Shown piece after piece: positions 19,756 through 41,852 of a stretch of 64,000 bases of DNA. Each line of letters begins with the position of its first letter. The first letter of the stretch is position 1. A program made the position numbers and the translations under genes. A model generated the notes under the pieces. That model had not been told where the DNA came from, made no database searches, and saw only the letters and a list, made by a program, of their open reading frames with translations. Source of the stretch: an uncultured Chloroflexia bacterium (GTDB taxonomy: Bacteria > Chloroflexota > Limnocylindria > Limnocylindrales > CSP1-4); NCBI GenBank assembly GCA_963826225.1, contig CAWGWF010000001.1:988391-1052390 (forward strand), given 5' to 3'.

Positions 19756-21297
19756 TCAGGACCCGGCTTCTTCGGAGCCCCCATCGCCGGCGTCCCGGCG
19801 CTGCCCGTCGGCCATGGCGCGGCGGTTCGTTTCACGGAGCCGCGTGACCTTCGCCGCGGAGCCCATGCCGTCCACCTGGGGCCCGGGGACCGGGTTGCGC
19901 GGCGTCCGACCGCGGGCGCGGGCATCGTCCCGCGCCGCCTCCCGGGCCGCCATCCGTTCGCCGATCGTGCGCTCGTACCCCTGGTCCGAGGGCAGGTAGT
20001 AGCGGCGCCCGGCGAGCTCGTCCGGCAGGTACTGCTGGTCGACGTCGTGACCCTCGAACTCGTGGGGGTAGCGGTAGCCGACGCCGATCCCGTGGTGCTT
20101 CATCCGACGGTCCGCGGCGTTCCGCAGGTGGAGCGGGACCGGCAGCGAGCCGCGGTCCACGACGTCCGCGACGGCCGCCCAGTAGCCAGTGCCCGCCCGG
20201 TTGGACTTGGGCGCCGTTGCGATGTAGGCGGCGGCCTGGGCGAGGGCGTACTGGGCCTCCGGAAGCCCGACGTGGTCGAGCGCCTGGGCGGCCGAGATCG
20301 CCACCTGCAGGGCCCGTGGATCCGCGTTGCCCACATCCTCCGAGGCGCTGATGATCAGCCGGCGGGCGATGAACCGGGGGTCCTCGCCGGCCGCGACCAT
20401 CGCCGCCAGCCAGTACAGCGCGGCGTCCGGGTCGCTGCCTCGCAGGCTCTTGATGAACGCCGACACCGTGTCGTAGTGGCCGTCGCCGGCGCGGTCGTAG
20501 CCCAGCACCCGCTGCTGGGCAGCGGCCTCGACGTCGGCCAGGGTGGGGGAGACGGCGCCCCCTTCCGAACGGTGAGCCTCGTCCTCGGCCAGGGCGATCG
20601 AACCCTCGAGCACGTTGAGCGCCTGGCGCGCGTCGCCGCCCGCGAGGTCCACGAGGTGGTCGAAGGGTTCAGCTGCGAGCGTCACCCCGCCGCGCGGACC
20701 GAGTGGACCGGCCAGGCCGCGCTCTGCGTCCTCGAGGGCGCGGCGGATGATCGTGGCGACGTCCTCGTCGGCGAGGGGCTCCAGGCGCCAGACCCGCATC
20801 CGCGACAGGAGGGCGGCGTTGACCTCGAAGTAGGGGTTCTCGGTGGTGGCGCCGATCAGCGTGACGGTGCCGTCCTCCACGTGCGGAAGGAGCGCATCCT
20901 GCTGCGCCTTGTTGAAGCGATGGATCTCGTCGATGAACAGGACCGATCGACGACCCTCGAGGGTCAGCCGCTCCTGTGCCTCGGCGACGGTCGCCCGGAC
21001 CTCGGCCACGCCGGACATGACCGCGGAGATCGTGTGGAACCGGGCACCGACCGCGTCGGCAAGGAGCCGGGCGAGGGACGTCTTGCCGGTCCCGGGCGGA
21101 CCCCAGAGAAGCAGCGATGCGAGATGGCCCCGGCCCACCGAGCGGCGGAGCGGGCCCCGCTCGCCCACGAGGTGGTCCTGCCCGACGAACTCGTCCAGCG
21201 CGCGCGGCCGCATGCGGGCGGCGAGCGGCTGTCGTTCGGGGGGCGGGCGGAACAGGGCCTCGGGTCGGGCGCCGGGAACCGCGCGCCTGGTGGGCAT
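19756..21297 (-). CDS. rarA: Replication-associated recombination protein A (AAA+ ATPase)
   Basis: Walker [10 protein letters not shown], Walker B FIDEIHR and the MgsA/RarA C-terminal domain (PKSNRAGTGYW). Full length. Confidence 0.9.
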   Translation of the reverse strand: MPTRRAVPGARPEALFRPPPERQPLAARMRPRALDEFVGQDHLVGERGPLRRSVGRGHLASLLLWGPPGTGKTSLARLLADAVGARFHTISAVMSGVAEVRATVAEAQERLTLEGRRSVLFIDEIHRFNKAQQDALLPHVEDGTVTLIGATTENPYFEVNAALLSRMRVWRLEPLADEDVATIIRRALEDAERGLAGPLGPRGGVTLAAEPFDHLVDLAGGDARQALNVLEGSIALAEDEAHRSEGGAVSPTLADVEAAAQQRVLGYDRAGDGHYDTVSAFIKSLRGSDPDAALYWLAAMVAAGEDPRFIARRLIISASEDVGNADPRALQVAISAAQALDHVGLPEAQYALAQAAAYIATAPKSNRAGTGYWAAVADVVDRGSLPVPLHLRNAADRRMKHHGIGVGYRYPHEFEGHDVDQQYLPDELAGRRYYLPSDQGYERTIGERMAAREAARDDARARGRTPRNPVPGPQVDGMGSAAKVTRLRETNRRAMADGQRRDAGDGGSEEAGS

Positions 21298-21326
21298 CGG
21301 GCCGGCCGTTGGGTGGCCTGCCGGCC

Positions 21327-21734
21327 TCAGGCGATCGTGATCACGCCCGCGACGTCGATCACGAGCCAGAGGGCGATCAGGATGCCGAACAGGAGGGTGG
21401 CGATCCGGACGATGTCCTTCACGTCCCTCGCCACGTAGGCGTACTCGGTTTCGGCGCGGACGGCGAGGGTGCCGGCGGGTGCAACGTCGCGGACCGCCGT
21501 GCCGCGCTCCCGTGTCCGCTTGCGGGACTGCTCGGCGGCGCGTTCCTCCGCCAGCAGCTGCGCCTCAAGCTCGGCGGCGCGCGCGGCCTCCGCGTCGGTC
21601 AGGCCCGTGGGGCGGGGCGCGACGGGTGCGGCGGGCTTGGACGCCGCCGGCGCCGCGGCGGATGCCGCTGCCGGGCGTCGGGAGATCGGCCGGCGCTGGC
21701 CGGGGCGGACACTGCCGCGGGCGCGCTTCGCCAT
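21327..21734 (-). CDS. Hypothetical membrane protein (basic N-terminus, C-terminal TM)
   Basis: 135-aa ORF with an ATG start, directly upstream of rarA on the same strand. It has a coiled-coil middle and a C-terminal TM segment (ATLLFGILIALWLVIDVAGVITIA). Confidence 0.45.
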   Translation of the reverse strand: MAKRARGSVRPGQRRPISRRPAAASAAAPAASKPAAPVAPRPTGLTDAEAARAAELEAQLLAEERAAEQSRKRTRERGTAVRDVAPAGTLAVRAETEYAYVARDVKDIVRIATLLFGILIALWLVIDVAGVITIA

Positions 21735-21877
21735 GGCGTGGCTGAGGCCTCCTCGGTCGGGGCTGCCGCGGGCGCGGCACCGTCGGCGGCAGAGGATACA
21801 CCGGTCCGGGGACCGGGGCCGTGAGTGGTGCGAGAGAACCTGCTGGTAGACTCGACCCGCCCCGGACGGAGGACCTC

Positions 21878-22399
21878 GTGGACGATCTCAACGCGCTCGT
21901 GAGCCCATCGATCGGCGCCATCGCCGTGGCGCTCGGGATCGCTTGTGGCGTGCTGATCGTGGCGGTGGTGATCCTCTGGCGCCGCACGTCCCGGCTGGAC
22001 CGGCGTCTGCAAGGGCTGACTCGTGGCGCGGAGGGGCAGAGCCTCGAGGCCATCCTCGACGCGCACCTGGACAAGGTGTACGCGGTGGCCCGCGACGTGG
22101 ACGAGCTTGCCGCGCGCTCGGCTGTCCTGGAGGCGACCCAGCGGCGGACCCTGCAGCGCATCGGGCTCGTGCGGTTCAATCCCTTCGAGGACACCGGCGG
22201 CAACCAGAGCTTCGCACTGGCCGTCCTCGACGCGCGCGGCGACGGGTTCGTCGTGAGCAGCCTGCACGCCCGGACCGGCACCCGCGTCTACGGCAAGGCG
22301 GTCGCCGGCGGGCGCTCGGAGTCCAACCTCTCGGCCGAGGAGGCCGAGGCGGTGCGGCTCGCGCTGGCCACCGGGACGGGCGCGACCGGCGGCTCCTGA
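21878..22399 (+). CDS. DUF4446-like protein
   Basis: N-terminal TM segment and the conserved block RFNPFEDTGGNQSFALAVLDARGDGFVVSSLHARTGTRVY. I chose the GTG at 21878, which is preceded by GGAGGA. The ORF also extends to a GTG at 21821. Confidence 0.6.
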   Translation: MDDLNALVSPSIGAIAVALGIACGVLIVAVVILWRRTSRLDRRLQGLTRGAEGQSLEAILDAHLDKVYAVARDVDELAARSAVLEATQRRTLQRIGLVRFNPFEDTGGNQSFALAVLDARGDGFVVSSLHARTGTRVYGKAVAGGRSESNLSAEEAEAVRLALATGTGATGGS

Positions 22400-22453
22400 T
22401 CGCCGCGCGGCCGTGACACCGGAGCTGGCACGGACTCACGCCATCCTGGCGGC

Positions 22454-25400
22454 ATGCCCCCTATCGAGCGTCCCACGCGACCCGCTCCCCCTGTACGTCC
22501 GGCGCCCGCTGCGGGCGCCCGCCCCGTGAAACGCCGTTCTCCACGGGGTGACCCGGCCCAGCTGGTGCAGATCCCGGTCTGGGGCCAGGTGGAGGTGACC
22601 GCGGACGAGCCGGAGCCCGAGTCCGGGCTCGAGAGCCTTCTCGCCGGGTTGAACCCGGAGCAGAAGCGCGCAGTGACGCACGGCGACGGGCCGCTGCTGG
22701 TCGTGGCCGGCGCGGGCACGGGCAAGACCCAGGTCATCACGCGGCGGATCGCGTGGCTCATCGCCACCCGCCGAGCCCGTCCCGCGGAGATCCTCGCCCT
22801 GACCTTCACGGACCAGGCGGCGGACGAGATGCAGGTCCGGGTGGACCAGATGGTCCCGTACGGGTATACGGACACGGCGATCTCCACGTTCCACGCGTTC
22901 GGTGACCGGCTGATCCGGGAGTTCGCCCTGGAGCTCGGGCTGCCGACGGACGTCCGCGTCCTGTCGCGGCCGGAGACCGTCGTGTTCATGCGGGAGCGCC
23001 TGTTCGAGCTCGGGCTGGACGAGTACCGGCCACTGGGGGACCCCACCCGGTTCCTGGACGCGCTGGCCACGCTGTTCTCGCGGGCCAAGGACGAGGACGT
23101 GTCGCCGGACGCCTTCCTTGCCCACGCGGACCGGTTGGGCGCCGGCGCACTGGAGGCCGCACGCACGCTCGAGGCGGCCGGAGGGGACGCCCTCGAGGCG
23201 GACCGGAGCGCCGCGGCGGCGCTGGACGAGGACGCGCGCCGGACCCGCGAGCTGGCCCGGGCCTACGGCCGCTACCAGGCGCTCCTCGCCTCCGTCGGAG
23301 CGGTCGACTTCGGGGACCAGGTCGCCCTCGCGCTGCGCCTGCTGCGCGAGTCGCCGGCCGCGCGGGACGTCGTTCAGCGCCGGTTCCGGTATGTCCTGGT
23401 GGACGAGTTCCAGGACACGAATCGCGCCCAGGCGGAGCTGGTCGCGCTGGTCGCGCAACGGCACCGGAACGTGACGGTGGTCGGGGACGACGACCAGTCG
23501 ATCTACAAGTTCCGCGGCGCCGCGATCAGCAACATCCTGGAGTTCCGGGAGCGGTACCGGCATGCGAAGGTCGTCGTCCTGCGGCGCAACTACCGCTCGC
23601 GCGGCCCGATCCTGGACGCGGCCTACCGGCTGGTGCGCCACAACGACCCGGACCGCCTGGAGGTGCGGGCGGGCATCGTGAAGCGCCTGGTCGCGGAGCG
23701 CGGGAGCGAAGGGGCTCCGGCCGTGCGCCACGAGGCATTCGCGACCGGTGCAGAGGAGGCGGACTGGATCGCCGCGGACATCGCGCGGCGCGTGCGGGAC
23801 GGGGCGGCGCCGCGAGATATGGCGATCCTGGTCCGGGCGAACGCCACCGCGGACCCCGTCATGCGCTCGCTCAACCTGGAGGGAATCCCCTGGCGGTTCT
23901 CGGGGACCTCCGGCCTGTACGCCCGGCCGGAGGTCAAGCTGCTCCTCGCCTTCCTGCGCGCGATCGCGGACCTCGAGTCGTCGGTGGACGTGTACGCCCT
24001 GGCCGCGTCGGAGCTGTACCGGCTGGGCGGCGAGGACCTGGTCGCGATCGTGAACATGGCGCGCCGCCGGAACCGGTCGGTGTTCGAGATCCTCGACGAG
24101 CTTGGCCGCCAGCCCGGGATCCTGCGCCTCTCGCCGGAGACGCGAGCCTCGGCGGCCGTGCTGGTGGCGGACCTGCGGCAGTACGCCGCCCTGGGCCACG
24201 AGCGGCCGGCCGGCGAGGTCATGTATGCGTTCCTCAAGGGGACCGGCTGGCTGGGACGCCTCGCCGGCGCCGAGTCGGTCGCGGCGGAGGAGGCGCTGTC
24301 CAACATCGCGCGTTTCTTCGACATCGTCCGGGCGCAGTCCGCCCTGCTCGCGGACGACCGTGCGGTGTTCGTGGCACGTCACCTCCAGACGCTGATCGCC
24401 GCGGGGGACGACCCGCCGACCGCGGATATCGACCCGGACGCCGACGCCGTCGCCGTGATGACCGTGCACAAGGCGAAGGGCCTCGAGTTCCCGATCGTCT
24501 ACCTGCCCGGGCTCGTCACCGGCCGCTTTCCGGCCGTCGGGCGGCGGGAGCCGCTGGCCCTGCCGATCGAGCTGGTCAACGAGACGCTGCCGGAGGGTGA
24601 CTACCAGCTCCAGGAGGAGCGCCGGCTGTTCTACGTGGGCATGACCCGGGCGCGGGACGAGCTCGTGCTGTCGCACGCGGCGGACTACGGCGGCCAGCGG
24701 GCGCGTCGCGTGTCGCCGTTCGTGCTGGAGGCGCTGGACCTGCCGGTGGCCGCCGGCGCGGCGGGGGCCGGCGCGAAGCCGGTCTCGCCGCTGGAGCGCC
24801 TGGGAGGGCTGGACCGGACGGAGCCGTCGCCGGCCGCCGTCCGGGTGCGCGGGGACGAGCCGCTGATGCTCTCGTTCTACGCGATCGACGACTACCTGAC
24901 GTGCCCGCTCAAGTACAAGTACGCCCATCTGCTGCGCGTGCCGCTGGCGCCCCACCACTCGATCATCTACGGCTCCGCGCTCCATGCCGCCGTGTCCGAG
25001 TTCCATCGTCGCCACGCGCGCGGCGACGTGATGACCGAGGACGACCTGTATGCGTCGTTCCTGGGTGCCTGGACCAACGAGGGGTTTCTGTCGCGGGAGC
25101 ATGAGGAGGCGCGCCTGGCCGCGGGCCGCGAGGCGCTGCGTCGCTTCCGGGACGCGCAGCTCGCGCCCGGTGCGGTCGTGCCCGCGTACGTGGAGCGGGA
25201 GTTCAGCTTCCTGCTGGACGGGGATCGCGTCCGGGGGCGCTTCGATCGGGTCGACATCGTGCCACGCGATGCCGAGGGACCGGGGACGGCGCCAAGTGAG
25301 GGACCGGCGCCGGTCGCGGACGTCGTGGAACCCACCCTGGAGCTTTCGCCGGAGCTGGTGACGATCACGGACTACAAGTCCTCGGACGTGCGTGACCCCG

Positions 25401-25684
25401 CCAAGGCCCGGCAGCGCGCCAGGGACTCGCTCCAGCTGTCGATCTACGCCATGGGCTACGAGGCGATGACCGGTCGCCTGCCGGACGCCGTCGCGCTTCA
25501 CTTCCTCGAGTCGGGTCTGGTCGGGTCGGTGCCCGTGGACCGCAAGCGCATGGACAAGGCGCGAGGGTCGATCCGGGCGGCCGCCTCAGGGATCAGGGCC
25601 AGGGAGTTCGCGGCCAAACCTGACCGCCTGTCCTGCAACTACTGTGCCTTCCGGGAGATCTGCCCGGCGAGCGCGGTGCGGTGA
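22454..25684 (+). CDS. UvrD/PcrA-type DNA helicase with a C-terminal Fe-S PD-(D/E)XK (RecB/AddB/Cas4-like) nuclease domain
   Basis: Helicase motif I (VVAGAGTGKT), motif II (VDEFQD) and a 2B region. The C-terminus has a DYK nuclease motif (ITDYKSSD) and a four-Cys cluster (TCPLKY ... CNYCAFREIC). It is 1076 aa. Confidence 0.85.
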   Translation: MPPIERPTRPAPPVRPAPAAGARPVKRRSPRGDPAQLVQIPVWGQVEVTADEPEPESGLESLLAGLNPEQKRAVTHGDGPLLVVAGAGTGKTQVITRRIAWLIATRRARPAEILALTFTDQAADEMQVRVDQMVPYGYTDTAISTFHAFGDRLIREFALELGLPTDVRVLSRPETVVFMRERLFELGLDEYRPLGDPTRFLDALATLFSRAKDEDVSPDAFLAHADRLGAGALEAARTLEAAGGDALEADRSAAAALDEDARRTRELARAYGRYQALLASVGAVDFGDQVALALRLLRESPAARDVVQRRFRYVLVDEFQDTNRAQAELVALVAQRHRNVTVVGDDDQSIYKFRGAAISNILEFRERYRHAKVVVLRRNYRSRGPILDAAYRLVRHNDPDRLEVRAGIVKRLVAERGSEGAPAVRHEAFATGAEEADWIAADIARRVRDGAAPRDMAILVRANATADPVMRSLNLEGIPWRFSGTSGLYARPEVKLLLAFLRAIADLESSVDVYALAASELYRLGGEDLVAIVNMARRRNRSVFEILDELGRQPGILRLSPETRASAAVLVADLRQYAALGHERPAGEVMYAFLKGTGWLGRLAGAESVAAEEALSNIARFFDIVRAQSALLADDRAVFVARHLQTLIAAGDDPPTADIDPDADAVAVMTVHKAKGLEFPIVYLPGLVTGRFPAVGRREPLALPIELVNETLPEGDYQLQEERRLFYVGMTRARDELVLSHAADYGGQRARRVSPFVLEALDLPVAAGAAGAGAKPVSPLERLGGLDRTEPSPAAVRVRGDEPLMLSFYAIDDYLTCPLKYKYAHLLRVPLAPHHSIIYGSALHAAVSEFHRRHARGDVMTEDDLYASFLGAWTNEGFLSREHEEARLAAGREALRRFRDAQLAPGAVVPAYVEREFSFLLDGDRVRGRFDRVDIVPRDAEGPGTAPSEGPAPVADVVEPTLELSPELVTITDYKSSDVRDPAKARQRARDSLQLSIYAMGYEAMTGRLPDAVALHFLESGLVGSVPVDRKRMDKARGSIRAAASGIRAREFAAKPDRLSCNYCAFREICPASAVR

Positions 25685-26571
25685 CCGTGGCGCCGCTGCC
25701 GCCCGATGCCCGCGCGGCGATCGACGCCGTGCTGGACGCGGCCGCCGGCGGGGCGGTGGTCGAGGCGGACAACCTGGAGGTGATGCGCGCGTTGCCTGCG
25801 GGCGTGGTGGACCTCGTCTACGCGGATCCGCCGTTCGCGAGCGGCCGGTCTCGGCGCCTGGCCTCGATCCGGACCGGGACGGGTCGTCGGACCCGGCGCG
25901 GGTTTGGGGGTCGCGAGTACCGCTACGAGGTGGTGAGCGACCTCGCCTGGCAGGACGACCTCCCACTGGACGAGCATCTCGACGCGCTCCGCGTCAGGTT
26001 GATGGAGATCCGCCGTGTCCTCGCGGACCACGGATCGCTGTACCTCCACCTGGACTGGCGCACGGTTCACCACGTCCGCCTGCTGCTGGACGAGGTGTTC
26101 GGCGCCCAGCGGTTCCTGAACGAGCTCGTGTGGGCCTACGACTTCGGCGGCCGGTCCACTGACCGGTGGCCGCGCAAGCACGACACGATCCTGTGGTACG
26201 CGAAGGGGGACCGCTGGCTGTTCGACCGCGACGCGATCGACCGGATCCCGTACCTTGCTCCCGGGCTGGTGGGACCGGAGAAGGCGGCGCGCGGCAAGCT
26301 GCCGACGGACGTTTGGTGGATGACCATCGTCCCGCCGGGATCCGCAGAGCGGACCGGCTACCCCACCCAGAAGCCGGTGCGGCTCCTGGAGCGGATCGTG
26401 GCTGCCTCCAGCCGCCCGGGGGATCTCGTGCTGGACCCCTACGGGGGCAGCGGGACGACCGGGGTTGCCGCCGCCCGGGCCGGCCGCCGGTGGCTGCTGG
26501 TGGACCGGAATCCGGCGGCGGTGGCGATCGCCCGGGCCCGGCTCGCCGCGGAGCAGGCAGGCGGAACGTGA
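25681..26571 (+). CDS. Beta-class DNA methyltransferase (N6-adenine/N4-cytosine type, PF01555-like)
   Basis: Motif IV DPPF comes before motif I (DPYGGSGTT) and the FxGxG-like segment. The GTG start overlaps the helicase stop (GTGA). Confidence 0.8.
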   Translation: MTVAPLPPDARAAIDAVLDAAAGGAVVEADNLEVMRALPAGVVDLVYADPPFASGRSRRLASIRTGTGRRTRRGFGGREYRYEVVSDLAWQDDLPLDEHLDALRVRLMEIRRVLADHGSLYLHLDWRTVHHVRLLLDEVFGAQRFLNELVWAYDFGGRSTDRWPRKHDTILWYAKGDRWLFDRDAIDRIPYLAPGLVGPEKAARGKLPTDVWWMTIVPPGSAERTGYPTQKPVRLLERIVAASSRPGDLVLDPYGGSGTTGVAAARAGRRWLLVDRNPAAVAIARARLAAEQAGGT

Positions 26572-27347
26572 TCGAGGCGATCACGTTCGACTTCGGGAAC
26601 ACGCTGGTGCCGGTGGCCGGCCCCGGACTCCGAGGCGTGGTCTCCGCCACGGCGAACGAGATGGCAGTGCGACTCGGCCCATTCGACAGGGAGGCCGTCC
26701 TGGCGGCCTGGGCCGAGGAGCGCGAGCGGCAGTTCCGCGAGGAGGTGCCTCGGTTCCGGGAGGTGGACCTGGGCGAGCGGATCGTGCGAGTGCTGGCCCG
26801 CCTGCGCGGGATGCAGCCGCCACCCGCCGATGTGCCCTGGGACCAGGTGGCCGCCGCCCGCCTGAGTGAGCCCGAGGAGGTGGCCTGGATGATCGAGGTC
26901 TACTCGCGGGCATTCGTGGACGCGCTGCCGCCGCGCCCGGAGGTGGGCGACCTGCTGGCGCGGCTCGCGCTCCGCCACCGGCTGGCGATCCTGTCCAACT
27001 GGCCGCTTGCGGCGACCATCGACCGGTATGCCGAGGCCGCCGGCTGGATGCCGGCCCTGTCGGCGATCGTCGTCTCCCAGCGGGTGGGGGCGATCAAGCC
27101 GCACCCCGCCATCTTCGCTGCCGCCCGGGCGGCGCTCGGCGACCCGCCGCCGGGCAGCATCCTGCACGTCGGCGACGACTGGGCGGCCGATGTGGTGGGC
27201 GCCAAGGGCGCAGGCTGGCGGGCCGCCTACCTGACGGGGAGGCCGGACGACTCGCCGCTCCCCGGCAGCGAGCGGGACGGCTCAGTCAGCCCGGACCTCG
27301 AGATCGCGAGCCTCGAGGACCTCGAAGTGGCCCTCGCGCGCCCGTAG
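26568..27347 (+). CDS. HAD-superfamily hydrolase
   Basis: Motif I DxG (ITFDFGNT), motif III (K-loop) and GDD (VGDDWAADV). The GTG start overlaps the methyltransferase stop. Confidence 0.75.
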   Translation: MIEAITFDFGNTLVPVAGPGLRGVVSATANEMAVRLGPFDREAVLAAWAEERERQFREEVPRFREVDLGERIVRVLARLRGMQPPPADVPWDQVAAARLSEPEEVAWMIEVYSRAFVDALPPRPEVGDLLARLALRHRLAILSNWPLAATIDRYAEAAGWMPALSAIVVSQRVGAIKPHPAIFAAARAALGDPPPGSILHVGDDWAADVVGAKGAGWRAAYLTGRPDDSPLPGSERDGSVSPDLEIASLEDLEVALARP

Positions 27348-27432
27348 CCCGTCCTTCGGCGCAGGACCACGCTGGGCTCCGATCCTGGTCCGGCGACGCC
27401 GTGTCCTGCCCGGTCGGTAGACTCGACGGCTG

Positions 27433-27807
27433 ATGGAGACTCGCGACCGCATCGTCAACCTCGCGCTGCTGACCGCCGCGGGTCTCGCCTGGATCCTGGT
27501 GGCGCTCGTGGTGACGACTCGCGATCCCTATCAGGACCCGATGGCCGGCTACCTCGGGGCGCTGCTGATCGGCTTGGCCGCGGGCTTGGCGGCCGTTCCG
27601 CTCGCGTGGCTGGTCGTGTTCGGCCGGCACCGGCGGATCGCCTACCAGGGCGCCTGGATCCGGGCCACCAGGCGCGGGGCGTGGATCGGGCTGTTCGTCT
27701 CGGTGGTCGTTGTCCTGCGCCTCGTGGACGCGTTCCAGCTGCCCATCATCCTGTTCCTCGCCGCCATCTTCGTGGTCGCCGAGGTCACGCTCTCGGCCGA
27801 GCGCTAG
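27433..27807 (+). CDS. Hypothetical small membrane protein
   Basis: 124 aa with three or four TM helices, an ATG start and GC3-biased codons. Confidence 0.45.
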   Translation: METRDRIVNLALLTAAGLAWILVALVVTTRDPYQDPMAGYLGALLIGLAAGLAAVPLAWLVVFGRHRRIAYQGAWIRATRRGAWIGLFVSVVVVLRLVDAFQLPIILFLAAIFVVAEVTLSAER

Positions 27808-27815
27808 GAGGACCC

Positions 27816-29025
27816 GTGACACCGCCGCTCACCGCCGCCCGCCCCGCCGAACCGTTCGCGGACCTCAAGGCCCGCGCCGCCCGAGCCGTCGAGGATGCCC
27901 GGGCCGAGATCCTGGATCTGTCGCACCGGATCCACGCCACCCCGGAACCCGCGTTCGAGGAGCATCGGGCCGCGGCGTGGGTGGCCGAGGCCGTCGCCCG
28001 CCACGGCTACGCCGTCGAGCACCCGGCCGGCAGCCTGGCCACCGCGGTGCGGGGCCGGATCACCGGGGGCCTGGGCGCCGATGGCCCGCGGATCGGCGTG
28101 CTCGCCGAGTACGACGCGCTGCCGGGGCTGGGGCACGGGTGCGGCCACAACACGATGGCCGCATCGGGCGTGGGTGCCGCGATCGCGCTGGCGGCGGTCC
28201 GGGACGCATGGGCCGGCGAGGTCGTGTTCCTCGGCACGCCGGCAGAGGAGCGGGGGAGCGGCAAGGCCATCATGATCCGCGACGGCCTGTTCGAAGGCCT
28301 GGACGCGGCGCTCCTGTTCCACCCGTGCGACCGCAATCACGTCGAGAGCGCGGCGCTGGCCTCCGAGGACGTGACGGTCACCTTCACGGGCGTCGCCTCG
28401 CACGCCGCATCGGACCCGTGGAGTGGCCGCAACGCACTGGACGCGATGATCGCGCTGTACGTGTCGGTCGGCCTCTGGCGCCAGCAGCTGCCCACCCACT
28501 GCCGCGTGCACGGGATCATCCAGGAGGGCGGAACCGCGGCCAACATCATCCCGGATCGCACCCGCGCCTGGTTCATGATCCGCAGCGCCGACCAGCCGCT
28601 ACTACGAGGTCATGAAGGCGCGCTTCCGCGCCCTGTGCGAGGCGGCAGCCCAGGCCGCCGACGTGGCGGTGGAGGTCGAGTTCTCCGGCGGAGCCACCAC
28701 GATCAAGCCCAATCGCACGCTCGCCGCGCTGTGGGTGGCGAACGGCGAGGCCTACGGGATCCGCGACGAGGGCCCGGACCCGACCTCGGGCTCCACGGAC
28801 ATGGGCAACGTGTCGTGGGTGCTGCCGGCCATCCACCCCGACCTGTCGATCACGGACGGCCCGACGCCCGGCCACACGATCGAGTTCCGCGATGCCGCTG
28901 CCCAGCCCACCGCGGACCGGACGGTGCTCCTCGCGGCGACGCTCGTGGCGCAGACGGCGATCGACCTGTTGGGCGATCCGGGGCAGGTCGCGGCGGCGTG
29001 GCGCGAGTTCCGCGGGGAGGGGTAG
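27816..29025 (+). pseudogene. M20D-family amidohydrolase interrupted by a +1 frameshift near 28596-28600
   Basis: Frame 0 (27816 onward) encodes the N-terminal two thirds, including the HGCGHN metal site, and then decays after ADQP. Frame +1 (ORF 28612-29025) encodes the conserved C-terminus (YYEVMKARF ... GSTDMGNVS). This is consistent with a single extra base in ccgCtactac. Confidence 0.6.
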
Positions 29026-38065: not shown

Positions 38066-39549
38066 GGAGCCCCCTCAGCGCTGCTCCGGGAGCGCCGGCG
38101 CAGGCGGTCCACCAGGCGGCGCCCGCGGCGCTGCAGGTCCGCCTCGAGGCGTGGGTGGGGGCGCCCGAGCGCCCGCTCACGCTCCAGTGTGCGCCACGCC
38201 GCGCGGGTTGCCGCGAGCGCGCCCGCCGGATCGCCGAGGCGGTGCTCGCGCAGCTTCGCGACCTCGATCCACGCGATCGCGCCGAGGCCGCCCCCGCCCG
38301 CGGCCGCCATCTGCCAGGCCTCGGCAGCCTCAGCCCAGCGGCCGAGGCGCCGGAGCACACGCGCCCGTTCCGCGGCCAGGTGCTCGTCCGTCCAGCGGTC
38401 CGGTGAGCCCCACGCCGCCGCGCCCGGCGCCGGACCGAGCGCTCCGCCCCGTCCGTTCGCCAGGTGCCCGCGCCACCCGGCCCGCGGCGGGGCGCCGCCG
38501 AAGTGCGGGCGGGTCCTGGCCTCCCACCACGGCTCCAGCTCATCCGCCCGCGCCTCCCGGATCCGCGCCGGGGTGACGGGCGTCCGGCCGAACGGATCGC
38601 GGGCCGGGGACGGGGAGGCGAGCGCATCGTCGAGGCAGTCCAGCGCGTCCGCATGGCGCCGCTCCCGGCCGTACGCGCGGGCGAGGCCCGCCAGGTCTCC
38701 GCGGGGCGCGGCGAAGCGCTCGCTACGCTCGCCGTACCGCCGTTCCACGTGGGCCAGCAGCAGCCCCAGCGAGCGGACGTCCTTCTCGTTGTGGATCACG
38801 ACCCCGGCCAGCCGCTCCACCGGGCCGCCGCGCAGCACATCAAGGTAGATGCCCGGGATCTCCCAGCCCTCGACGTCGCCAGTCCGGCTGATCCCCAGCA
38901 GCTCGCCCTCCACCGTCTGCAGGCGGGCATCCTCCATGCGGTGACGAAACACGCGCCGGACGAAGGGCAGCAGGTCCAGGTGACCCGCGTGGACCGGCGC
39001 GGCCCGGCCGGCCAGCCGGTACCGGGCCTCGATCAGCGGCCAGTCGAAGCCGCGGCCGTTGTAGGTCACCAGCCAGGTCTCCGGCGTCACCCAGGCCTCG
39101 ATCTCGGCCAGGAGCGCCGGCTCGTCGGCGTGGTCGGGCAGCAGAAGCTGGGTCTGGCGGAACTCGCCACCGTCCCAGCGGGCGAGGCCGACCAGGAACG
39201 CGAGCGTGCCGGCGGCCGTCGCGAGCCCGGTGGTCTCCGTGTCCAGGCAGACCAGCGGCGCGTCCGCAGGCGGATGGCCGGGCAGGCAGGCAAGCCGTTC
39301 CCGGTCCAGGGGGATGTCGACCGCGGCCACGACACGCCGTACGAGCGCGCCCGCCGGCGTGTCCGCGACATCCGCGCCGAGCGCGATCGCCAGGCGTGCC
39401 GCCAGCGCCGCGCTCCGGCGCCCCGCGAACGGGGCTCGCGCCGGTGGCTGCTCCGGTCCGACGGGCGGCCCGCCGGCCCGGGCGAGAGTCGCCCGCAGGT
39501 TCGCCAGCCGCCGCTCGCGGCCGACCGCCGCGAGGGGCTCCGCCGTCAT
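38062..39549 (-). CDS. MrfB/YprB-like DEDD-family 3'-5' exonuclease with C-terminal TPR-like repeats
   Basis: RNase H-like fold with LVCLDTETTGL, YNGRGFDWPL and H-x-D motifs. The C-terminal half is a helical repeat. The ATG at 39549 overlaps the stop of the upstream helicase gene (ATGA). Confidence 0.75.
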   Translation of the reverse strand: MTAEPLAAVGRERRLANLRATLARAGGPPVGPEQPPARAPFAGRRSAALAARLAIALGADVADTPAGALVRRVVAAVDIPLDRERLACLPGHPPADAPLVCLDTETTGLATAAGTLAFLVGLARWDGGEFRQTQLLLPDHADEPALLAEIEAWVTPETWLVTYNGRGFDWPLIEARYRLAGRAAPVHAGHLDLLPFVRRVFRHRMEDARLQTVEGELLGISRTGDVEGWEIPGIYLDVLRGGPVERLAGVVIHNEKDVRSLGLLLAHVERRYGERSERFAAPRGDLAGLARAYGRERRHADALDCLDDALASPSPARDPFGRTPVTPARIREARADELEPWWEARTRPHFGGAPPRAGWRGHLANGRGGALGPAPGAAAWGSPDRWTDEHLAAERARVLRRLGRWAEAAEAWQMAAAGGGGLGAIAWIEVAKLREHRLGDPAGALAATRAAWRTLERERALGRPHPRLEADLQRRGRRLVDRLRRRSRSSAEGAP

Positions 39550-41852
39550 GCGACCGCGGCCCGCTCCCCGGCCGCCGCGCCCAGCGCCGCGAGGAGCCGC
39601 AGGGCGAGTGCCTTGCCGTCCACCTCCGGCTCCAGCCGCGGACCGGTGCAGGCCGGGCATCCCGCGTCGCACGGGCAGGCTTGGAGCAGCTCGGCTGCCC
39701 CCGGCACCAGCTCCGCGTGGCGAGCGAACAGGCGCTCGGACAGGCCCACCCCGCCGGGCATCGCCTCGTACAGGTAGATCGTGGGCGCCTCGTGGTGCGG
39801 CGATCGCACCTGGGACACGAGCCCGAGATCCCGCGGATCCACCATCAGCAGCACCGCGGCGACCGCCTGGATGGCCCGCCCGGCGCCGATCAGCGCCACG
39901 TCCAGCTCGTCCCGCCGCCAGCCCTGCGCCGCCCCCTCCGCGGTCAGCCAGTAGGCCGTCGTCTGGAGCTCGATCTCCGGCAGGTCGATGGGCCCCCAGC
40001 CCACGTTCTCGTCGGTCACGAACTTCAGCTTCTTGTAGAGGGTCACGAGGCTGGCGACCATGACCTCGCCGTGAACCCGGGTGCCGCCGGTGGCGGGTGA
40101 CGTCGCGAACACGTCCAGGGGCTTGAGGGTCACCGCCCGGTTGGCGTACGTGTAGTGGTCCGCGTCGATCCGGTGGACGTACGCCTTCCGCTCGCCCCAC
40201 TCGAGGCGATCCACGTGGTACTGGGCCGACTCGTGCATGTAGATCGCGTGCTCGTGGACCAGCACCTGGGCGCTGAACAGGTCCACCTCGCCCAGGACCC
40301 GCGGCCGGTCGGGGGTCGTGTCGATGATCACGACGTTCTCGGGGGCGGCGGCTCGCAGGGAGACCTCGGACGCGGGGAAGTTCTCCGAGCTCCAGTACCA
40401 CCGGCCGTCGTCGGCCTGGCGCACGTGCCCGCCCTCGCCCAGGAAGGCGAGCAGCTCGTCGGCGGGGCCGGGGCCGAACCACTCGCCGGGCTCGAACGGG
40501 AGCTCGAACGTTGCCGCCCGCAGGTGGGCGAGCAGGACGTGCAGGTTGTCCGGGTCCAGCCGCGCCTCCTCCGGCCGACCGCCGAGCACGAACTCCGGGT
40601 GGTGGATGACGTACTGGTCAACGGGCGCCGGTGACGCGACCACGATCGCGACGCTCACGTCCCCCCGACGTCCGGCCCGGCCCATCTGCTGCCAGGTGCC
40701 GGCGATCGAGCCCGGGTAGCCGGCCAGCACGGCGACGTCCAGCCGTCCGATGTCCACGCCCAGCTCCAGGGCATTGGTGCTGACCACGCCCAGGATCTCG
40801 CCGTCGCGGAGGCCCCGCTCGATGGCCCGCCGCTCCGTGGGCAGGTAGCCGCCGCGGTAGCCGCGGACGCGGGTCCGCGGACCCAGGTCCTGGCGCAGCC
40901 GCTCGCGCAGGTTGGAGAGCATGATCTCCACCGCCACCCGGGACTTGCCGAACACCACGGTCTGGCGGCCGGCGCGCAGGAACGGCAGGGCCCAGCGCTC
41001 CGCCAGGGTCAGCGCGGAGCCGCGCGCCCCGGTGGAACCGTCCAGGATGGGCGGGTCCACCAGCAGGATGTGCTTCTCGCCGGACGGCGCGCCGTTGCGG
41101 TCCACGAGCTGCACCGGGCGTCCGGTGAGCGTCTCGGCCAGCTCCGCCGGGTTGCCGATGGTGGCCGAGCAGCAGACGATGACCGGGTGGCTGCCGTAGT
41201 GCGCGCACAGCCGCAGAAGCCGGCGCAGCACGTTCGCGACGTGGCTGCCGAACACGCCCCGGTAGGTGTGCAGCTCGTCCACCACGATGACCCGCAGCTG
41301 CTCGAACAGCTGGAACCACTTGGTGTGGTGGGGGAGGATCGCGGAGTGGAGCATGTCCGGGTTGGTGACGACGACCTGGCCCGCCTTGCGGATGGCGGAG
41401 CGGATGGGCGCCGGCGTGTCCCCGTCGTAGCAGGCGGCCGAGACCTCGAGCCCGGCGTCCCGGACCAGCTCCCCGAACTCCGAGACCTGGTCCTGTCCGA
41501 GGGCCTTGGTGGGGAACAGGAACAGCGCCCGGGCCGACGGGTCCTCGGCCAGGGCCTGGAGGACGGGCACCGTGTAGCACAGCGACTTGCCGGACGCCGT
41601 GGGCGTGACCACCACGATGTCCCGGCCCTCGTGCACGGCCTCGATCGCCTCCGCCTGGTGGACGTACGGGCGCTCGATGCCGCGACCGGCGAGCCCGGCC
41701 CGGATCCGCGCGTCCAGCCAGTCCGGCCAGTCCCCGTGAACCGCCTCACGGACCGGGATGACCTCGTGATGGACCACGCCCCGGGCCAGCGACGGCTCCG
41801 CCAGCAGCCGGTCCAGCACGGCCTTCGTGGGCGCGGGGGCATAGGTGCGCAT
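39546..41852 (-). CDS. MrfA/YprA-like DEAD/DEAH-box helicase with a C-terminal DUF1998 zinc-ribbon domain
   Basis: Walker A TPTASGKS and DEAH-type motif II (VDELH). The C-terminus has CPCDAGCPACTG (DUF1998 four-Cys). RBS GGAGG. Confidence 0.85.
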   Translation of the reverse strand: MRTYAPAPTKAVLDRLLAEPSLARGVVHHEVIPVREAVHGDWPDWLDARIRAGLAGRGIERPYVHQAEAIEAVHEGRDIVVVTPTASGKSLCYTVPVLQALAEDPSARALFLFPTKALGQDQVSEFGELVRDAGLEVSAACYDGDTPAPIRSAIRKAGQVVVTNPDMLHSAILPHHTKWFQLFEQLRVIVVDELHTYRGVFGSHVANVLRRLLRLCAHYGSHPVIVCCSATIGNPAELAETLTGRPVQLVDRNGAPSGEKHILLVDPPILDGSTGARGSALTLAERWALPFLRAGRQTVVFGKSRVAVEIMLSNLRERLRQDLGPRTRVRGYRGGYLPTERRAIERGLRDGEILGVVSTNALELGVDIGRLDVAVLAGYPGSIAGTWQQMGRAGRRGDVSVAIVVASPAPVDQYVIHHPEFVLGGRPEEARLDPDNLHVLLAHLRAATFELPFEPGEWFGPGPADELLAFLGEGGHVRQADDGRWYWSSENFPASEVSLRAAAPENVVIIDTTPDRPRVLGEVDLFSAQVLVHEHAIYMHESAQYHVDRLEWGERKAYVHRIDADHYTYANRAVTLKPLDVFATSPATGGTRVHGEVMVASLVTLYKKLKFVTDENVGWGPIDLPEIELQTTAYWLTAEGAAQGWRRDELDVALIGAGRAIQAVAAVLLMVDPRDLGLVSQVRSPHHEAPTIYLYEAMPGGVGLSERLFARHAELVPGAAELLQACPCDAGCPACTGPRLEPEVDGKALALRLLAALGAAAGERAAVA

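Follow-up and report, generated by a model that had tools for sequence, protein, structure and literature searches.

Single proteins that join a UvrD-like helicase to a Cas4-like nuclease (the pfam12705 branch) have been described computationally by Hudaiberdiev and co-workers (Hudaiberdiev et al., 2017; PMC5704561). These UvrD-Cas4-like fusions were noted to occur in stand-alone or non-conserved contexts, and a RecB/AddB-like role was predicted for them. In AdnAB, an iron–sulphur (Fe-S) cluster is located in AdnA, the non-driving motor subunit, while AdnB drives translocation (PMC8789073). We found no biochemical study of the single-chain UvrD/Fe-S nuclease family in the literature. Here, we analysed a gene of this kind from an uncultured Chloroflexia bacterium of the Limnocylindrales (contig CAWGWF010000001.1), using a stretch of 64,000 nucleotides (nt) that we refer to as the window. 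The helicase-nuclease gene is followed in the window by a gene for a DNA methyltransferase (methylase) and a gene for a HAD hydrolase, and a preliminary description of this DNA had taken the arrangement for a modification-dependent or modification-guided DNA-processing system. Our comparative analysis makes it likely that a housekeeping helicase-nuclease stands next to a solitary methylase that was inserted in one Limnocylindrales clade, and that the two genes are neighbours by gene packing and have no mutual need.

The helicase-nuclease gene covers positions 22454–25684 (+) and encodes 1076 amino acids (aa) from the ATG at 22454. It is followed by the N6_N4 DNA methyltransferase gene (25681–26571, +; 296 aa) and the HAD-IA hydrolase gene (26568–27347, +; 259 aa). 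Read directly from the sequence, the genes overlap twice in a GTGA: at 25681–25684 (+) the helicase stop codon TGA (25682–25684) overlaps the GTG start of the methylase at 25681, and at 26568–26571 (+) the methylase stop codon (26569–26571) overlaps the GTG start of the HAD gene at 26568. All three open reading frames (ORFs) are real and co-directional. In a window of 70–77% GC, their third-position GC is 0.925 (helicase), 0.909 (methylase) and 0.931 (HAD), with second-position values of 0.49–0.53, and a frame plot agrees with the GC by position. Coding GC, frame plot and Pfam bear out the coordinates and domain assignments of the preliminary description.

Full-length orthologs of the helicase-nuclease were found in Patescibacteria, Omnitrophota, Aminicenantes, Acidobacteriota, a Verrucomicrobiia metagenome-assembled genome and Chloroflexota; orthologs in Limnocylindrales share 73–100% identity. 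Outside Limnocylindria, a related methylase within 10 kb was present at none of 37 full-length orthologous loci, and a hidden Markov model of the methylase family, run over 613 kb around these 37 loci, did not detect a related methylase. Among 113 immediate neighbours from 35 non-Limnocylindria loci, a Pfam scan showed neither a methylase nor Res in the recurrent families, which were FemAB (8), RmuC (5), DinB_2 (3) and RuvB (2). Judged by this distribution, the helicase-nuclease is a widespread housekeeping family, older and far more widespread than its association with the methylase.

Within Limnocylindria, the presence or absence of the methylase was scored at the helicase locus. In a neighbour-joining (NJ) tree of the nuclease domain, the methylase-bearing loci formed one clade, while the sister clade (L001, L002, L012, L026, L162 and L163) and the outgroup L019 were without methylase; none of the seven Limnocylindria loci outside the methylase-bearing clade carried it. 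The gene tables gave the order DUF4446–helicase–HAD for L001, L162 and L163 (helicase 73–75% identical) and DUF4446–helicase–methylase–HAD for L164 (helicase 82% identical), and the HAD gene directly follows the helicase in the methylase-free relatives L001, L012, L026, L162 and L163. With the methylase loci in one clade and the HAD gene straight after the helicase in the sister clade, the simplest history is that the methylase was gained once between helicase and HAD and then passed on vertically. The methylase would then have been inserted once, precisely between the two genes, in the ancestor of one Limnocylindrales clade and kept intact from there on. The helicases of the methylase-bearing and the methylase-free clade differ by two fixed substitutions and one 1-residue indel, with no change in architecture. 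Directly behind the helicase stop, the window (25682–25695), where the methylase comes next, and L001 (13202–13215), where the HAD gene comes next, have the sequence TGACCGTGGCG in common. To this we attach low weight; it suggests that the methylase ORF may have landed a few codons past the start of the ancestral HAD gene, whose start context it may have taken over. The three-gene synteny that the preliminary description had proposed as a check is conserved inside the methylase-bearing clade and absent from the sister clade, L019 and the other phyla. Lack of synteny between methylase and helicase in relatives, named there as evidence against a joint system, is what we found beyond this one clade and not inside it.

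The methylase matches Pfam N6_N4_Mtase (PF01555; 6.1e-44). Motif IV, DPPF (aa 49–52; 25825–25836, +), lies ahead of motif I, GSGTT (aa 256–260; 26446–26460, +), which is the motif order of beta-class N6/N4 methyltransferases and confirms the class given in the preliminary description. Given the DPPF motif, the methylated base is probably N6-adenine. All 80 family members compared are intact, and they share 82 invariant residues including D49, P50, P51, F52, G256, G258 and T259. In PADLOC, the methylase matches MTase_II PDLC03300 (9.1e-111, 368 bits), with Type III Mod models scoring at most 108 bits. The protein database holds an identical 296-aa methylase (P0121).

Related methylases also occur apart from the helicase. 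At about 40 loci with methylases of 62–71% identity no helicase is nearby, and the settings of such relatives include conserved but differing housekeeping contexts (pirin/HIT/MFS and APH/LysM-M23/RlmN). Its contexts suggest a Type II-type methylase which, more than once, became a solitary gene and was then stably maintained, at chromosomal sites that seem arbitrary; the locus in the window would be one of these. Relatives in phage and plasmid collections were all below 40% identity and hence reveal neither the specificity of the methylase nor whether it had a mobile origin. In the Limnocylindrales clade, the methylase presumably modifies a fixed genomic motif, with an epigenetic role or in protection against restriction-modification (R-M) systems of the same family or specificity. 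Avoidance of that motif in the genome is not predicted for a solitary enzyme. Stable inheritance as a solitary gene in several lineages makes this family a reasonable target for metagenomic methylome work.

At five loci a conserved 180-aa ORF, termed c16, lies immediately 3′ of a related methylase (L126:5831–6373, L130:5301–5864, L122:1651–2193, L121:1751–2290 and L156:1042–1347). It carries a D...E-x-K motif, seen as GD...PVE(I/V)K, and in L130 it adjoins a serine recombinase and an AAA_25 gene. Searches of Pfam, PADLOC, NCBIfam and PDB returned no match to c16. Its position and the D...ExK motif make it a candidate for an uncharacterised Type II restriction endonuclease family. These five loci are among those with the closest methylases outside Limnocylindria, and PADLOC places the window methylase in Type II. 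It is possible, though we doubt it, that the methylase entered Limnocylindrales in a Type II pair, for example with an endonuclease of the c16 type, and that the endonuclease was lost later. This history is opposed by the clade loci themselves, where the methylase is separated from helicase and HAD by at most about 80 nt on either side, without any endonuclease remnant, and by the junction sequence, which looks as if one ORF alone had been inserted cleanly. A nuclease function of c16 is moreover deduced without a match in the four databases, and c16 offers no hint of the sequence that the methylase recognises. Neither the window nor the methylase loci of the Limnocylindrales clade contain c16, and in the window the methylase is flanked by helicase and HAD with 4-nt overlaps and no adjacent cognate endonuclease, which sets it apart from a Type II R-M pair. 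Pfam, PADLOC and comparison of the window genes revealed neither a recognisable restriction enzyme nor a defence island or a second subunit of the helicase-nuclease in the 64 kb, in keeping with the earlier remark that a restriction endonuclease partner is missing.

The helicase-nuclease was matched by Pfam to UvrD-helicase (6.8e-71), UvrD_C (2.5e-43) and PDDEXK_1 (5e-29). The motor motifs are intact, with Walker A GAGTGKT at aa 86–92, motif II at aa 317–323 (DEFQD at 317–321), motif III QSIYKFRGA at aa 348–356, motif V at aa 670–679 and motif VI VGMTRAR at aa 728–734; together with the UvrD-helicase and UvrD_C domains, these motifs identify a superfamily 1A (SF1A) helicase of the UvrD/PcrA/Rep type. 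The best PDB matches of the motor were PcrA (2.7e-88) and UvrD (3.7e-83), followed by AdnB (9.6e-49). The equivalog cut-offs of NCBIfam were not reached for pcrA (408.5 bits vs 911), uvrD (325.7 vs 1144) or rep (338.6 vs 951), and the addA and recB scores were far under their cut-offs. In motif III (23495–23521), a Phe occupies the position before RGA, which may correspond to that of Trp325 in AdnB. Motif III of AdnB has the ratchet-pawl Trp325 followed by Arg326 (PMC8789073).

The RecB/AddB/Cas4-type PD-(D/E)XK nuclease domain extends over 24869–25681 (+; about aa 806–1076). The protein contains only four cysteines, spaced C-x243-C-x2-C-x5-C, and these are the predicted Fe-S ligands: C817 (24902–24904), C1061 (25634–25636), C1064 (25643–25645) and C1070 (25661–25663). 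Each of them is conserved without exception in the 67 orthologs compared, which come from many phyla; this upholds the AddB/Cas4-type four-Cys cluster on a UvrD-type motor proposed in the preliminary description. The catalytic layout is E914, D931, D973-Y-K975 and Q994..Y998; E914, D931, D973, K975 and Y998 are likewise invariant in all 67 orthologs, and Q994 in 66 of them. Catalytic motifs and cysteines together are those of an Fe-S RecB-family nuclease of the AddB/AdnA/Cas4/Dna2 type. The TIGR00372 cas4 model matches the domain at 8.2e-9, under its cut-off. With a profile of 29 diverse ortholog nuclease domains, the whole AdnA nuclease is matched, Cys region included (about 1e-12), as are the AdnB core, ACE1, AddB and the Cas4 protein SSO0001.

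From these features, an ATP-driven UvrD/PcrA-like motor, presumably moving 3′-to-5′, would feed the unwound strand to the C-terminal RecB-family nuclease, stabilised by its Fe-S cluster. Homology and the occasional RmuC and RuvB neighbours lead us to infer recombinational repair or the resection of DNA ends as the most likely role of the helicase-nuclease. The enzyme is widespread in poorly studied phyla, including Patescibacteria with their small genomes, and could be the main DNA-end resection enzyme of those lineages.

Some observations weigh against a mere neighbourhood of unrelated genes. The helicase and the methylase are adjacent in every close relative, that is, in about 37 metagenome loci with a readable upstream flank and in L164; with the window included, the adjacency is invariant inside the methylase-bearing clade. 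Wherever methylases of at least 75% identity (77–88% by best match) have readable flanks, the order is helicase–methylase–HAD. The methylase is as conserved as the helicase (77–88% vs about 61–83% identity across the clade loci) and often translationally coupled to it. The same gene order recurs in L152 (849–1655; methylase 65% identical), whose methylase falls outside the main clade in the NJ tree and whose helicase is basal to the methylase-bearing clade; either deep divergence of this methylase or a replacement at the same site may account for it. In addition, UvrD-Cas4-like fusions have been reported beside Type III Mod/Res and Dcm genes (PMC5704561), which provides a precedent for a helicase-nuclease next to a methylase.

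Strict adjacency, the GTGA overlaps, this precedent and a window without classical restriction enzyme would all suit a module in which the methylase labels self DNA, leaving unmarked (or marked) DNA to be degraded or processed by the helicase-nuclease in place of a restriction enzyme. We nevertheless regard such a modification-guided module, as suggested in the preliminary description, as improbable. The methylase is confined to one clade, being absent from the 37 loci in other phyla and from the seven Limnocylindria loci outside that clade, its gain left the domains and architecture of the helicase unchanged, and its family lives without the helicase in several contexts. Moreover, the surroundings of the locus are of housekeeping type and the PADLOC matches are only generic. 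A functional link between helicase and methylase that arose inside the methylase-bearing clade is given a small chance at best. One form of it, to which we give very little credence, is that the methylase was co-opted there, with the coupled helicase-nuclease telling methylated self from unmethylated incoming DNA; if true, this would be a two-gene restriction-like system made from a housekeeping resection enzyme without a classical endonuclease. Methyl-directed repair, with a Dam-like methylase for strand discrimination and a helicase-nuclease combining MutH-like nicking and UvrD-like unwinding, is hardly credible: Dam, MutH and UvrD cooperate in Escherichia coli, and only the adjacency and the UvrD-type motor fit this scheme, whereas the methylase is missing at all 37 loci in other phyla and at the seven Limnocylindria loci outside the clade, the nuclease belongs to the RecB/Cas4 type of exonucleases and is not MutH-like, and no mutS or mutL is found among the annotated window genes. 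For the likely case of a housekeeping enzyme beside an inserted solitary methylase, the locus illustrates how closely packed, overlapping genes of a compact high-GC genome can look like a system, a likeness that comparative synteny resolves.

The preliminary description had also concluded from the two overlaps that the three genes form one transcript; the overlaps stand as read, and they are compatible with a single transcript and do not imply it. Owing to the compact genome, the three genes and those after them are probably co-transcribed. A scan of 21200–28200 for promoters and terminators on both strands found none, which is uninformative at 73% GC in a Chloroflexota genome, and Rfam and tRNA scans gave no match near the locus. 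For the helicase gene, an alternative GTG start at 22565 would yield 1039 aa; the identical helicase in the protein database (P0001, 1039 aa), which is carried by a 2.69-Mb contig, begins 37 codons further in. The closest protein matches bear the name Candidatus Limnocylindrales (Chloroflexota). A long antisense ORF at 22436–25501 (−) was rejected for its non-coding GC pattern.

The HAD gene matches Pfam Hydrolase (PF00702; 1.1e-17) and TIGR01549 HAD-SF-IA-v1 with 32.7 bits (cut-off 23.3), and apart from generic HAD-IA models its NCBIfam matches are sub-threshold. Motif I FDFGNT (aa 7–12), motif II LSNW (aa 142–145) and motif IV GDD (aa 202–204) agree with membership in HAD-IA. In motif I (26586–26603), a Gly stands in place of Asp+2, as it does in L163 and L164. 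Asp+2 is the general acid/base of typical HAD phosphatases, and with Gly at this position the protein may not be a standard phosphatase. The HAD hydrolase is another neighbour limited to Limnocylindria.

Upstream of the helicase start, at a distance of 54 nt, lies a DUF4446 gene (21821–22399, +; Pfam DUF4446 6.6e-40). It is a conserved Limnocylindria neighbour, present upstream of the helicase also in L001, L002, L012, L026, L162–L164 and metagenome loci. Farther upstream, genes for a 134-aa ORF (−), MgsA/RarA (−), an M28 peptidase and a GGDEF/EAL protein were found. Downstream, the locus is followed by a conserved 124-aa ORF, an M20 peptidase gene, an arginase-family gene and others, and SerA, MurJ, FtsH, an MrfA-like helicase and a ComM-like protein are encoded farther off in the window. 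According to the gene tables, the co-directional gene string of the locus is kept in relatives. The locus is a housekeeping chromosomal site of a Limnocylindrales genome and not a defence island.

Next in the co-directional cluster comes the 124-aa ORF (27433–27807, +), for which Pfam, NCBIfam and PADLOC gave no match. Almost every Limnocylindria locus whose downstream flank is long enough has this ORF, at 54–81% identity, with only a partial match of 43% in L019, and in Limnocylindria relatives it always comes after the HAD gene or the helicase. The M20 peptidase gene (27816–29013) is split by a frameshift near 28596–28600, either as a pseudogene or by an assembly indel: residues 1–260 of the L164 ortholog align to 27816–28595, and residues 262–399 align to 28600–29013 in another frame. 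A second DNA-repair-type helicase, MrfA/YprA-like, is encoded at 39546–41852 (−), with DEAD/Helicase_C, an MrfA Zn-binding domain (MZB) and an HRQ1-type winged helix. This helicase family is linked to Cas4-like nucleases in some genomes (PMC5704561).

Comparison with known systems allowed us to set several candidates aside. The best PADLOC match of the helicase is GajB of Gabija (9.4e-92), reached through the common UvrD core. GajB lacks the Fe-S nuclease domain, and in PDB it is matched over no more than about 90 residues (1e-11), compared with 2.7e-88 for PcrA. Gabija was rejected, as the helicase is flanked by DUF4446 and the methylase and no GajA is among the annotated window genes. Overall, PADLOC returned only generic matches (GajB, DRT-helicase or UvrD-type, and Type II methylase) and no system-specific partner. 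Type III R-M systems share with this locus a Mod protein of the same Pfam family and a helicase-plus-nuclease gene beside the methylase. The methylase is, however, 296 aa long and not about 600, and the helicase is of the SF1 UvrD type and not an SF2 Res protein. Type III was rejected on the scores of the methylase (368 bits for the Type II model vs at most 108), on the lack of a ResIII match and on the wide occurrence of the helicase without methylase.

AdnAB of mycobacteria and AddAB of Bacillus resemble the helicase-nuclease in their UvrD-like motor and RecB-family nuclease, with one upstream Cys followed by C-x2-C-x5-C. They are heterodimers, whereas here an apparently active motor and an Fe-S-type nuclease lie on one chain with no paralogous partner gene. 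A helicase paralog, or paralogous subunit, is absent from the 64-kb window, and neither UvrD nor PDDEXK families are among the recurrent neighbours of 35 orthologs. One chain would hence combine what AddAB and AdnAB split over two subunits. With the solitary beta-class methylases CcrM and YhdJ, the methylase shares the N6_N4_Mtase domain with DPPF, a position without adjacent endonuclease, a housekeeping context and vertical inheritance. It is not an ortholog of either: it scores 90.5 bits where the cut-off for CcrM is 830, and 91.3 bits where that for the YhdJ type is 292.

By architecture, the closest likeness of the helicase-nuclease is to the UvrD-Cas4-like fusions (PMC5704561), a monophyletic branch in that study, which likewise consist of an SF1 UvrD-like helicase and a C-terminal Cas4-like four-Cys PD-(D/E)XK nuclease. 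The contexts reported there (Type III Mod/Res, Dcm/Vsr and WYL/HTH) are absent here and around the 37 orthologs. The preliminary description could not match the arrangement to a named system. Taken gene by gene, both partners are of known kinds, the helicase-nuclease having the architecture of a UvrD-Cas4-like fusion and the methylase being a domesticated solitary enzyme of the beta class.

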